The notes: generated by a model not told the origin, from the sequence alone. A stretch of DNA of 37,007 bases from Patescibacteria group bacterium (GCA_038078675.1 JBBTUC010000084.1:1-37007); one strand, 5' to 3'; shown: positions 31,066 to 37,007, numbered from the stretch's first letter. Numbers and translations: made by a program.

Positions 31066-32517
31066 ATGAAAACCGTCCGCACCCGCATCGCTCCCTCGCC
31101 TACCGGAGAAAATCTTCACATCGGCAATGCTTATACGGCGCTCATCAACTTCGTGGTGGCAAAACAAAACAACGGTCAGTTTATCATCCGTATTGAAGAC
31201 ACCGACCGGACGCGGTTTGTCCTAGGGTCAGAACGTCGGATCTTGGAGTCGCTTGCATGGCTTGGTATTCCCCATGATGAAGGACCGGATAACGATGGGC
31301 CATTTGCTCCATACCGCCAATCCGAACGACTTGAATTTTATAGAAAATACGCAGAAGAGTTAGTTGAGAAGGATCACGCCTACTACTGCTTCTGTACGCC
31401 GGATCAGCTTGGCGAGATGAGAAAAGAGCAGGAAGCTCGGCACGAGCCGCCGAGGTATGACGGTCACTGTCGTGAACTCAAAACTCAAAATTCAAAACTT
31501 CCCGCGAAGCGGGATCCCGCTCCGCGGGACAAAATTCAAAATGGCGAAAAGTACGTAATCCGATTGAAAGTTCCTGACGAAGGGGTCACCACGTTCACCG
31601 ACCTTATCCGCGGAGAAATTTCTTTTGAAAATAAGCTCATTGATGATCAGGTACTTCTCAAATCCGATGGGTTTCCGACGTACCATCTCGGCGTGGTTGT
31701 GGATGATCATGGTATGGAGATTTCCCACGTCATTCGCGGTGAAGAATGGATTTCGTCTACCCCTAAACATATTCTCCTCTACCGATTTTTTGGATGGGAC
31801 ATCCCGGTTTACGCCCACCTGCCGCTTCTTCGAAATCCGGACAAAAGTAAATTATCCAAACGGAAAAATCCCGTATGGGCGTCGTGGTACAAAGAACAGG
31901 GGTACTTGCCGGAAGCGCTCCTCAATTATTTAGCGTCGATGGCATGGGCACATCCTAAAGGGGATGAACTATTTTCTATCGACGGGATGATAAAAGTATT
32001 TGATCTTAAGGATGTGCAGACCACGGCACCTATCTTTGATATCGAAAAATTGAGATGGATGAATGGGGAGTATTTACGAAGCTATCAGCTGTCAGCTATC
32101 AGCTATCAGCTTTATAATTTTTTTAATCAAAAATACCCCTTAGAGATGATTGAACAAATATGGCCGCTTGTACGTGAAAGAATGAAAACACTGAAGGAAT
32201 TTGAGTCTCTTGCCGGATTTTTTTTCGAGCGGCCGAAGGAATATGAGAGGCCGGTGGACAAAAAACTATTAACATTCTCGCATCATGCGCTTGAATTATC
32301 TGATTGGAATCATGACGCGATGGAAAAAAGGATCCGTGAAGCCGCGGAAAAATCTGGCATAAAGGCAAAAGACCTCTTTATGGAACTTCGTATTGCCATT
32401 ACCGGTAAATCCGTCGGCCCACCGATTCTCGAGTCCCTCGAAATTCTTGGCCGCGAGGAAAGTCTTAAAAGACTTTCTGTCATTCCGGCCCCCGAGCCGG
32501 AATCCATTACCATCTAA
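31066..32517 (+). CDS. gltX: Glutamyl-tRNA synthetase
   Basis: RIAPSPTGENLHIGNAYTA (HIGH-type motif), KLSKRK (KMSKS-type motif) and GFPTYHLGVVVDD. The ATG at 31066 is preferred over the TTG at 31024. Confidence 0.9.
   Translation: MKTVRTRIAPSPTGENLHIGNAYTALINFVVAKQNNGQFIIRIEDTDRTRFVLGSERRILESLAWLGIPHDEGPDNDGPFAPYRQSERLEFYRKYAEELVEKDHAYYCFCTPDQLGEMRKEQEARHEPPRYDGHCRELKTQNSKLPAKRDPAPRDKIQNGEKYVIRLKVPDEGVTTFTDLIRGEISFENKLIDDQVLLKSDGFPTYHLGVVVDDHGMEISHVIRGEEWISSTPKHILLYRFFGWDIPVYAHLPLLRNPDKSKLSKRKNPVWASWYKEQGYLPEALLNYLASMAWAHPKGDELFSIDGMIKVFDLKDVQTTAPIFDIEKLRWMNGEYLRSYQLSAISYQLYNFFNQKYPLEMIEQIWPLVRERMKTLKEFESLAGFFFERPKEYERPVDKKLLTFSHHALELSDWNHDAMEKRIREAAEKSGIKAKDLFMELRIAITGKSVGPPILESLEILGREESLKRLSVIPAPEPESITI
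31498..31529. repeat. Tandem mini-hairpins inside gltX (encode LPAKRDPAPRD), flanked by a 12-nt direct repeat
   Basis: CCCGC-gaa-GCGGG and CCCGC-tcc-GCGGG. The direct repeat CAAAATTCAAAA lies at 31486-31497 and 31530-31541. Confidence 0.75.
32080..32114. repeat. Heptanucleotide tandem repeat inside gltX
   Basis: AGCTATC AGCTGTC AGCTATC AGCTATC AGCTTTA, translated as SYQLSAISYQLY. Confidence 0.85.
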
Positions 32518-35439: not shown

Positions 35440-35473
35440 ATCACAAAATTATGCACGTGCATAATTTTGTGAT
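35440..35473. repeat. 34-bp perfect palindrome, copy 1 (upstream of the PaaX/Cas2-like gene)
   Basis: ATCACAAAATTATGCAC|GTGCATAATTTTGTGAT. Identical to 36215-36248. Confidence 0.95.
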
Positions 35474-36157: not shown

Positions 36158-36214
36158 AAGCTTTCTGTAGACGTATCTTATATTTCACCAATGACATTGA
36201 AGAGACGTCAAGGC

Positions 36215-36248
36215 ATCACAAAATTATGCACGTGCATAATTTTGTGAT
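36215..36248. repeat. 34-bp perfect palindrome, copy 2 (downstream of the PaaX/Cas2-like gene, upstream of the tRNA cluster)
   Basis: Identical to 35440-35473. A candidate promoter follows within about 12 nt: TTGGTA (36261-36266), 18-nt spacer, TATAAT (36285-36290). Confidence 0.95.
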
Positions 36249-36310
36249 GGATTCCGTGGGTTGGTAGGGAGGATTGAAGTAGGATATAATCATGTCGTTG
36301 GGGCTTGAGC

Positions 36311-36483
36311 TGGGAGGTCGTATAACGGTAGTACGTCCCGCTTAGCGGGACTATCTTGGTGAGTTGTTATTAGCGCTGCGGGATCGTATAACGGTAGTAC
36401 ACATCCCTCTGGAGGATGGTATCTTGGTTCGAATCCAAGTCCCGCAGCGCTGCTAACAATAAAATGGAATCCAAGCCTCCCAG
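36311..36483 (+). other. Split, diverged tRNA-like gene whose T-loop position is occupied by tRNA-Gln
   Basis: The 5' part (36311-36360) aligns to tRNA-Gln, with identical blocks tcgtataacggtagtac and tatcttggt, but has its own acceptor strand TGGGAGG. The matching CCAAG-CCTCCCA-G lies at 36471-36483. The anticodon arm GTCCC-GCTTAGC-GGGAC is non-canonical (C33). Probably a pseudo-tRNA; function unknown. Confidence 0.4.
36377..36447 (+). tRNA. tRNA-Gln (anticodon CTG)
   Basis: Hand-folded: TGCGGGA-TC-GTAT-AACGGTA-GTAC-A-CATCC-CTCTGGA-GGATG-GTAT-CTTGG-TTCGAAT-CCAAG-TCCCGCA-G. It is 71 nt, with a U1-A72 pair and G73 as in bacterial tRNA-Gln. No encoded CCA. Confidence 0.9.
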
Positions 36484-36755
36484 CTCAGATCCTAACGGTG
36501 CAGTAGTATGTTCCGCTTCGCGGAGATGAGAATCTAGGAGCAACATCACCGGTGCGGAAATATCCGAATGGGCACAAGTCCCGTAGCACAGTTTCACTTA
36601 CACATACTTCATAAGTATGATGTTCGAGCATTTTTGTATAATTTCAATACCCAGCGCAGGAATCCCCATCCCTTTTAGGGGTGGGGAGGAATGCGCCGCC
36701 CGGAGAGATGCAAGTCTTCTTGCGTCTCGGAGGCATCTTCTGTCATGATTTGTTC

Positions 36756-37007
36756 ATGACGGAATACTGGAAAGGTTCATCAACAACACACAGAATTGTG
36801 ACTCATCTGGTGTTCTGTCCGAAATACCGAAGACGGGTATTGATTGGCAAAATAGCCAAGAGAATAGAGCAGTTGTTTATCCAGTGTTGCCAGATGAACA
36901 AGTGGGAGATTCATGAGTTAGGATTTGATCGGGATCATGTGCACATGATGATTGTCAAGTACCCCGTTTTTCAAGAACACTTTCTGAGTATTTTTGTTTA
37001 TACTGAT
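36756..37007 (+). CDS. tnpA: IS200/IS605 family transposase TnpA (Y1 HUH), 5' part, runs off the window
   Basis: Hand-translated; not in the ORF track: MTEYWKGSSTTHRIVTHLVFCPKYRRRVLIGKIAKRIEQLFIQCCQMNKWEIHELGFDRDHVHMMIVKYP. This shows the HLVF.PKYRR and DHVH (HUH) signatures. Upstream hairpins and a TGTATAAT extended -10 at 36635-36642. Confidence 0.8.
   Translation, partial: MTEYWKGSSTTHRIVTHLVFCPKYRRRVLIGKIAKRIEQLFIQCCQMNKWEIHELGFDRDHVHMMIVKYPVFQEHFLSIFVYTD

Follow-up and report, generated by a model that had tools for sequence, protein, structure and literature searches.

In the window analysed here, a 37,007-nt stretch that forms the end of the Gottesmanbacteria-like Patescibacteria contig CAYHOT010000006.1, a complete tRNA-Gln(CUG) gene is nested within the T-loop of a second gene of the same specificity. 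We conclude that this locus is probably the scar of a T-loop-targeted invasion of a resident tRNA-Gln gene, hereafter G-type, by tRNA-Gln cassettes. The outer halves belong to the tRNA-Gln(CUG) gene originally present at the locus, related genomes hold the same site uninterrupted, and the same T-loop point is interrupted again and again in relatives, where small GIY-YIG genes directly adjoin tRNA-Gln genes. The mechanism of the invasion is proposed by analogy with T4 SegB and may have involved a nuclease-made break. Since the same insertion hot spot occurs in related groundwater bacteria, the most fitting reading is that of a scar left by selfish-DNA traffic, not of a novel kind of tRNA.

The first-pass annotation of this DNA had described a tRNA-Gln inside a split, still self-complementary tRNA-like gene, followed by a third, armless tRNA-like module. 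The nested part was recovered with all its listed sequence features in place, whereas the third module was not upheld. Among the explanations then offered, the integration of a tRNA-Gln-carrying segment into a paralogous gene agrees with our results; a genuinely split or intervened tRNA is disfavoured, a role of the adjacent IS200/IS605 element finds no support, and an argument drawn from compensatory differences between the acceptor stems proved wrong.

The resident gene and its empty sites

The minimum free energy fold of 36296-36550 is the nested structure itself (-112 kcal/mol, z = -6.7, equalled by none of 200 shuffles). All features described below lie on the plus strand unless otherwise indicated. 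A promoter-like site, TTGGTA-18-TATAAT (36261-36290), is also found in the related loci L040, L043 and L053, and a transcript initiated there would have its 5' end at about the leader strand of the resident gene. A 36-bp palindrome lies 12 nt upstream of this promoter, and a gene for a PaaX-like protein is also found upstream.

The leader strand CGTTGGGGCTTGAGC (36296-36310) pairs with the trailer strand GCTCAGATCCTAACG (36483-36497) in the extended stem of the resident gene. The leader is followed by the outer acceptor 5' strand TGGGAGG and the D-arm TCGTATAACGGTAGTAC (36311-36334), identical to the intact gene of L043, and, beyond an aberrant anticodon arm, by the outer variable region, the T-stem 5' strand and the first T-loop base (TAT CTTGG T, 36352-36360), delimited by repetition in the inner tRNA and by alignment with L043. 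Downstream of the insert, the 3' half of the T-loop (GAAT), the T-stem strand CCAAG, the acceptor strand CCTCCCA and the discriminator G (36467-36483) are again identical to the intact L043 gene, and they are perfectly complementary to 36311-36317 and 36355-36359. As had been noticed, the upstream part repeats the 5' part of the inner tRNA: the 17-mer TCGTATAACGGTAGTAC is present at 36318 and 36384, against a chance expectation of 0.04 matches, the D-arm being the same in the outer and the inner copy, and a second block, TATCTTGGT, recurs at 36352 and 36420. The perfect complementarity reported between 36306-36317 and 36476-36487 is likewise real, and the flanks widen it to a 22-nt inverted repeat (36296-36317 with 36476-36497).

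The outer halves thus retain the 7-bp acceptor stem (TGGGAGG/CCTCCCA) and the 5-bp T-stem (CTTGG/CCAAG) of a tRNA; they have neither a 7-nt anticodon loop with U33 nor a 7-nt T-loop. They gave no match to the Rfam tRNA model (RF00005) even at E <= 10 and no ARAGORN call in intron mode, so that, with only 36377-36447 matching Rfam tRNA, the outer halves do not stand as a tRNA by covariance model.

A D-arm/T-loop pattern scan of species-representative genomes yielded 34 loci, designated here by numbers preceded by L. Two tRNA-Gln(CUG) paralogues occur among them, a C-type with the acceptor TGCGGGA/TCCCGCA, found as an ordinary gene in L005, L006 and others, and a G-type with the acceptor TGGGAGG/CCTCCCA, found as an ordinary gene in L019, L017 and L043. 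The differences between the inner and outer acceptor stems, previously taken as compensatory and as a sign of more than simple decay, are therefore differences between two pre-existing paralogues, each of them ordinary in relatives. The G-type gene always sits on a 15-bp leader/trailer helix (L019, L017), which is common to the ordinary genes of L043, L053, L019 and L017 and to the inner tRNA of L041. In an alignment of six lineages, 86% of the cells of this helix are paired and four pairs show double changes, compared with 26-55% of cells paired in slid controls.

Syntenic loci were found via orthologues of the upstream PaaX-like protein, and comparison with these related genomes revealed the empty outer tRNA. 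Whereas the site is occupied in the window and in L040, it is empty in L043/L044, where the flanking PaaX-like protein is 90% identical, and in L053-L056, where it is 77% identical; in the empty sites the same palindrome, promoter, leader and trailer surround one uninterrupted G-type tRNA-Gln(CUG). A base-by-base alignment of the window with the empty site leaves two differences, the anticodon arm and the TC of the T-loop. The outer halves are best read as a relic whose perfect pairing was inherited from the resident gene, not selected for a new function.

The inserted tRNA-Gln and its stalk

The insert comprises 106 nt (36361-36466), takes the place of the T-loop TC and consists of a complete TGCGGGA-type tRNA-Gln with its stalk. 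The canonical tRNA-Gln(CUG) that had been annotated at 36377-36447 was confirmed by both ARAGORN and the Rfam tRNA model (57.6 bits; 36377-36447/8), and it is the sole tRNA that either recognises in the region. It is a C-type gene (acceptor TGCGGGA/TCCCGCA), identical at 71 of 71 positions to the stand-alone C-type gene of L005, and this match, together with the empty sites, supports the integration of a tRNA-Gln segment into the T-loop of a paralogue. The inner tRNA is predicted to be a functional gene and the only tRNA at the locus able to decode.

The inner tRNA carries the C-type bases A26 and G44, whereas the bases beside the hairpin that occupies the outer anticodon position, G26 and C44, are G-type; with the identity to L005, this indicates that a whole C-type gene was inserted. 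A two-insertion model, in which the inner tRNA would be a chimera using the resident anticodon arm, is less parsimonious in view of the same four bases. An origin by tandem duplication was also rejected: the spacer that precedes the inner tRNA bears no relation to the native leader, and the outer flanks are native on both sides.

The stalk consists of a 5' strand, GAGTTGTTATTAGCGC (36361-36376), which pairs with 36447-36460 at 13 of 14 positions, and a 3' strand, CGCTGCTAACAATAAAATG (36448-36466), delimited by fold and complementarity. The earlier observation that the spacers GCGC/GCGC and TTGTTA/TAACAA prolong the inner acceptor stem into a rod was thereby borne out. A better-matching copy of the 5' strand lies ahead of a truncated C-type tRNA in L057. 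Leader/trailer pairing is absent from stand-alone C-type genes, while inserted C-type tRNAs sit on stalks that pair in every nested group despite their differing sequences; between L015 and L038 the stalk shows one compensatory change, from A-T to G-C. Neither an ORF, nor an integrase, nor a duplicated core was found in the insert from its sequence and its alignment to the empty site.

A dispersed palindrome at the outer anticodon position

The outer anticodon arm had rightly been called aberrant. The segment GTCCCGCTTAGCGGGAC (36335-36351) folds into a 7-bp stem with a 3-nt loop (z = -4.8), a closed hairpin GTCCCGC-TTA-GCGGGAC that stands in place of the 17-nt anticodon arm and includes the 15-nt core of a dispersed GC-rich palindrome; where L043 has CATCC-CTCTGGA-GGATG, the window has TCCCGC-TTA-GCGGGA. 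Because 21 sites with the core TCC[CG][CG]C-N3-12-G[CG][CG]GGA were counted in 349 kb of loci and shuffles gave only 0-2, the hairpin is a copy of this dispersed palindrome and not a decayed anticodon arm. Seven copies of the core lie in the window, among them an in-frame tandem pair inside the GluRS gene (31500-31529) and another at the GluRS C-terminus, and the 15-mer of the L015 hairpin has exact copies in L005 and, on the minus strand, at position 31500 of the window. Derivation of the hairpin from the C-type acceptor strands (nt 65-71 plus 2-8) was considered as well; the resemblance is real, but the dispersed palindrome explains the hairpin better.

With C33 and a 3-nt loop, the outer copy of the window cannot decode. 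The hairpin stems change compensatorily between lineages (GTCCCGC/GCGGGAC, ATCCCAC/GTGGGAT, GTCCCGA/TCGGGAC), and the 5' module as a whole (D-arm, hairpin and TATCTTGGT) differs hardly at all among the window, L040 and L042, whose flanking genes are only about 80% identical. Some constraint on this module at the RNA or DNA level is therefore possible.

Composite tRNA-Gln loci in related genomes

Genome and metagenome scans brought further composite loci to light. L040 is syntenic with the window and has the same 5' module and insert, the outer 3' half being absent. L042 has the same cassette followed by a G-type 3' half; its 5' acceptor is C-type, with a hairpin inserted after position 9, and its outer acceptor halves consequently do not match. 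L015 and L038 contain a C-type tRNA inside a C-type gene whose outer flanks are the same as in L006 and L026, where the gene is ordinary. The nesting is reversed in L041, in which an outer C-type gene with an intact CUG anticodon arm is cleanly split (CTTGG TTC|insert|GAAT CCAAG) by an inner G-type gene that brings its own leader/trailer helix. In L024/L039, tandem 5' copies, each terminating at TTC, are followed by a live tRNA and then by a GIY-YIG gene. Finally, L009 and L051/L052 have a 5' copy that runs to TTC, a 30-nt double hairpin (TCAGCC-RAAG-GCTGA, TCCGCC-TCT-GGMGGA), GAATC with a relic acceptor, a GIY-YIG ORF and a full tRNA. In L045 and L043 the live tRNA is followed by the 30-nt element and then by GAATCC with a relic acceptor strand.

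The break point TTC^GAAT, between T-loop positions 56 and 57, is shared among these loci, with no target duplication. The distinct nature of the inserts means that at least three unrelated sequences have entered at one and the same point of the T-loop. The closing helix of the outer gene was lost in L024 and in L040 and L042; as the last two are two of the three closest nested relatives of the window, closure is dispensable. Between L015 and L038, the distal stalk and outer T-stem differ at about 9 of 25 nt, one T-stem pair being broken, although the flanks are about 97% identical. The tRNA-Gln variant at the syntenic site also changes from species to species (L043, L045/L046, L047, L050, L053), which indicates frequent replacement. 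When further L041-like loci were sought via a flanking protein, the orthologous places had no tRNA; the D-arm/T 5' pattern was unmatched in viral contigs, and the literature searched contained no account of one bacterial tRNA lying inside another.

GIY-YIG proteins and the proposed invasion

Jackhmmer searches of all six-frame ORFs of the 8-kb loci identified GIY-YIG ORFs abutting tRNA-Gln in about 11 loci, L009, L017, L020, L023, L024, L033, L035, L036, L041 and L051 among them, with one further ORF 1.4 kb from the tRNA in L042 and none elsewhere in these 8-kb loci. One metagenome-assembled genome carries two such GIY-YIG/tRNA-Gln loci, L009 and L033. The encoded proteins, of about 90-156 aa, consist of the catalytic domain alone (Pfam PF01541, 53-63 bits) and have no recognisable DNA-binding domain. 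The window contains no GIY-YIG ORF, and a nuclease would be linked to it only by association in relatives.

We infer that the window is one case of a process common to the whole lineage of Gottesmanbacteria-like Patescibacteria. Invading DNA would enter the T-psi-C loop of tRNA-Gln genes between positions 56 and 57, bringing either a tRNA-Gln of its own or whatever part is required for rebuilding one, and it would often be accompanied by the gene of a predicted small GIY-YIG nuclease. Such a nuclease may cut an intact tRNA-Gln gene at or near GGTTCGAATCC, whereas a copy interrupted in its T-loop would be immune, and the break would be repaired by recombination or microhomology, as in T4 SegB homing. 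The T-arm sequence TTGGTTC is also present in the conserved trailer TTGGTTCTCAGCC of L051 and L009, where it would permit microhomology joining after a break. In the window, two events at the DNA level disrupted the resident gene: a 106-nt cassette bearing a stalked C-type tRNA-Gln(CUG) replaced the TC of the T-loop TTCGAAT, and a 15-nt copy of the dispersed GC-rich palindrome replaced the 17-nt anticodon arm. The inner tRNA would then be transcribed from the resident promoter within a long precursor, from which it is presumably freed by RNase P and 3' processing.

If this reading is correct, an essential tRNA gene has become a battleground of selfish DNA in the genome-reduced Patescibacteria, with the T-loop, the most conserved 11 nt of the tRNA, as the landing site. 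Invaders would spare the host by bringing a replacement tRNA, and their relics would accumulate as nested or tandem fragments, thus explaining puzzling tRNA-like debris and possible false calls of suppressor tRNAs in metagenome-assembled genomes. The set of occupied and empty sites could also serve as a test bed for the abundant small GIY-YIG proteins of these bacteria as homing nucleases. A bolder version, which we consider unlikely in its entirety, is that the tRNA on its stalk may be an undescribed, very small mobile cassette, a full tRNA-Gln between inverted repeats, which would target, by homing, position 56/57 in the T-psi-C loop of further tRNA-Gln genes and offset the damage with a working copy of its own; in recent cases, L041 for instance, the outer tRNA might still mature, one tRNA being in effect the intron of another in Bacteria. 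Were the cassette self-mobile, it would rank among the smallest known gene-carrying mobile units.

A function for the outer RNA?

Rather than a scar, the composite might be a functional precursor in which the outer 5' module and the stalk are a selected leader or scaffold for the inner tRNA, assisting its folding, its protection or its processing by RNase III or RNase P. The near invariance of the 5' module in the window, L040 and L042, with similar modules in L015/L038 and L024, would fit such a role, as would the covariation of the hairpin stems between lineages, the pairing of the stalks in all groups despite differences in sequence (including the single A-T to G-C change in L015/L038), the covarying conservation of the G-type leader/trailer helix and a promoter that puts the transcript 5' end at the leader. 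We nonetheless find this rather unlikely, for most relatives (31 of the 34 loci; L043, L053) have stand-alone C- and G-type genes that work with no 5' module, and the outer closure is lost in L040, L042 and L024. Moreover, the hairpin is a dispersed repeat that is not specific to the locus, gene conversion with the inner copy can explain the identity of the D-arm and of the T 5' block, and the independent lineages are few.

It has also been proposed that the outer halves form a split or intervened tRNA-like RNA once RNase P and RNase Z have processed the inner tRNA; the halves might then act as a split tRNA or be ligated into a second tRNA-like molecule. Removal of the insert in silico does turn the outer gene of L041 into a perfect tRNA-Gln(CUG), and in the window, where the outer acceptor and T-stem pair perfectly, ARAGORN calls an outer tRNA when the T-loop is restored. 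The anticodons called after such removal and restoration are UUA for the window and UUC for L015, a true CUG being obtained for L041. Against this explanation, the anticodon loop of the window copy has only 3 nt, with C33, and, the TC being missing, no T-loop is left; the outer closure is absent from L040, L042 and L024, and Rfam finds no match in the outer halves. A bulge-helix-bulge motif was not found at the junctions, where the folds show a continuous helix with TTC paired to GAA, nor is the layout that of a permuted or split gene, the order being 5' part, insert and 3' part on one strand. To our knowledge, no bacterial pathway trims and joins such tRNA halves. This explanation is accordingly disfavoured, and we regard it as very unlikely for the window.

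Downstream debris and the IS200/IS605 element

The third armless module formerly proposed at 36483-36541 is not supported: its fold has a z of -0.17, with 75 of 200 shuffles as stable, and the closing stem suggested for it is absent from the minimum free energy fold. Its 5' strand (36483-36497) is the conserved trailer, which pairs with the leader (36296-36310). The region from 36498 to 36587, which includes the remainder of the proposed module, is decayed tRNA-like debris (fold z of -0.17 and -1.25) and not a structured module. It holds a D-loop-like AACGGT and the hairpin TCCGC-TTC-GCGGA followed by GAGAATCTAG, and at 36575-36587 a 3'-end-like sequence, CAAGTCCCGTAGC. In L043, L045 and L051, relic 3' fragments of a similar kind follow the live tRNA. 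Two further candidate relics were rejected. The interval 36520-36587, taken as a whole decayed tRNA, reached an alignment score of 27 against a shuffle 95th percentile of 26, and an anticodon-arm-like sequence at 36599-36619 aligns with the IS copy of L033, homology at BLAST level beginning only from about 36642.

The tRNA-like modules had also been envisaged as a target or structure used by the adjacent IS200/IS605 element; they might equally be part of it, or have been moved as hairpin DNA by its Y1 transposase. Y1 transposases insert near short motifs without target duplication and act on hairpins of single-stranded DNA; all inserts seen in these tRNA genes form hairpins, and an IS200-type tnpA (PF01797) lies 270 nt downstream. 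Homology to the copy in L033, however, sets the left end of the IS at about 36600-36642, which leaves more than 100 nt between it and the 3' end of the outer gene, and in L033 the element has no tRNA pieces beside it. No IS200 was found near the other nested loci (L040, L042, L015, L038 and L041), and the insert has no separate left-end and right-end subterminal hairpins, its two ends pairing with each other. An origin of the nesting in this element thus has very little probability, and IS200 accounts for the end of the contig.

Despite the metagenomic source, the repeated tRNA blocks and a contig that terminates in an IS, an assembly chimera joining two tRNA-Gln loci can be practically dismissed, since the nested locus is identical in the NCBI MAG contig and in an independent ENA assembly (Hainich groundwater), the blocks common to the inner and outer copies do not exceed 17 nt, which makes a k-mer chimera unlikely, and five other projects hold related, non-identical nested loci.

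Comparison with known systems

Integrative elements that target tRNA genes use tyrosine integrases that strike the T-loop or the anticodon loop, and they carry a replacement for the 3' part of the gene. As at the locus described here, a tRNA gene is the target, the T-loop is a crossover point, the incoming DNA keeps a working tRNA in place and displaced tRNA fragments remain. Those elements nevertheless span kilobases, encode an integrase and are bounded on either side by direct repeats of the tRNA 3' part, whereas the present insert has 106 nt, brings a whole tRNA and shows neither integrase nor direct repeat.

The hairpin family resembles REP- and MITE-like repeats in being made of short GC-rich palindromes scattered genome-wide, coding regions included. 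Unlike the case of those repeats, no transposase or mechanism was identified for this palindrome family, and REP or MITE repeats have not been described as inserting into the anticodon arm of a tRNA.

Disrupted tRNA genes of archaea and algae comprise genes with non-canonical introns in the T-loop, split tRNAs and permuted tRNAs (PMC4033280, PMC3978253). They resemble the window in that helix-extending sequence interrupts the T-loop, but they are spliced at bulge-helix-bulge motifs by a dedicated endonuclease and a ligase to give a working tRNA. Here, the host is a bacterium, such a motif is absent, a tRNA forms the insert and the anticodon loop of the outer copy has been lost.

T4 SegB, on which the proposed invasion is modelled, is a free-standing GIY-YIG homing endonuclease encoded among clustered tRNA genes; it recognises a site containing GGTTCRANTCC, cuts near the 3' end of the tRNA and not in the T-loop, and spreads along with the tRNA genes around it (PMC2330249). 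It differs from the system described here in possessing a DNA-binding domain, where the GIY-YIG proteins of our loci have the catalytic domain only, and in that its homing replaces genes and does not nest them; the window, for its part, lacks a nuclease gene. What the two have in common is a GIY-YIG gene directly beside tRNA genes (here in the relatives), the involvement of the T-psi-C motif, which the recognition site of SegB includes, and a polymorphism of presence and absence between related genomes.

tRNA-Gln fragments and inserted hairpins

Additional tRNA-Gln 5' fragments, with hairpins inserted in the D-arm, were found in three relatives: in L024 (1098-1283) and, upstream of the live tRNA (the intact functional tRNA-Gln gene of the locus), on the minus strand of L042 and in L035. 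The L024 fragment comprises two perfect 93-nt tandem repeats, TTGCGGGATCGTA[CCGTGTCCTCC...GGAGGA]TAACGGTG..., while those of L042 and L035 contain hairpins of the GCC(C/T)GCCTGC...GCGGGC type inserted directly after position 9. Related locus L017 (5010-5125) carries a complete G-type tRNA-Gln (acceptor TGGGAGG/CCTCCCA), behind which its 3' two-thirds are repeated; in this second copy, a hairpin containing GCGCCTCATCGGCGGACA stands in place of the 5' part. The same 18-mer also breaks a truncated C-type tRNA (acceptor TGCGGGA/TCCCGCA) in L057 (1600-1660).

A degenerate self-copy precedes tRNA-Pro(CGG) in L037 (1261-1440). Since the anticodon position of this copy is occupied by a closed hairpin (GTCCCGA-CTTGAG-TCGGGAC) like the one in the interrupted outer tRNA-Gln of the window, composite or hairpin-interrupted tRNAs may not be limited to tRNA-Gln.

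Palindromes of the window

Short GC-rich palindromes of the form TCCSSC-loop-GSSGGA constitute a dispersed family in the window (12452, 13080, 22335, 31500-31529, 32484 and 36336), enriched approximately tenfold or more relative to shuffled sequences, and some are flanked by GTCAT...ATCCAG. The GluRS ORF contains a tandem pair of these palindromes in frame, and another one forms its C-terminus (VIPAPEPESI).

A different, perfect palindrome, CATCACAAAATTATGCACGTGCATAATTTTGTGATG, occurs twice, at 35440-35473 and 36214-36249; one copy is located immediately 5' of the start of the PaaX-like gene, and the other precedes the -35 of the tRNA-Gln promoter by 12 nt. All syntenic relatives have kept the two copies, and where the palindrome varies, it does so symmetrically: L050 has a GCTCGAGC centre, and L051 has the arms CTCCAC...GTGGAG and the centre CCTAGG. 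It looks like a putative operator of the PaaX-like regulator, which, if so, could also control the tRNA-Gln promoter.

Mobile DNA, and probable gene replacement at the syntenic site

The syntenic tRNA-Gln locus attracts mobile DNA of several kinds. In L047 (3869-5362), the gene directly 3' of the tRNA-Gln encodes a large serine recombinase (Resolvase/Recombinase/Zn_ribbon_recom); in L048 and L049 its place is taken by an rve-type transposase.

The window ends in an IS200-type element (36600-37007). Its left-end hairpin spans 36654-36696, and its tnpA, which starts at 36756, has a reading frame that diverges from the family past HVHMMI; the contig also ends in this element. A copy 77% identical to this element is found in L033 (3991-4303).

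The tRNA-Gln(CUG) at the syntenic site differs strongly among close species (L043, L045-L047, L050, L051 and L053). The differences affect both acceptor type and D-arm type, and they suggest that the gene has been replaced repeatedly instead of diverging by vertical descent.
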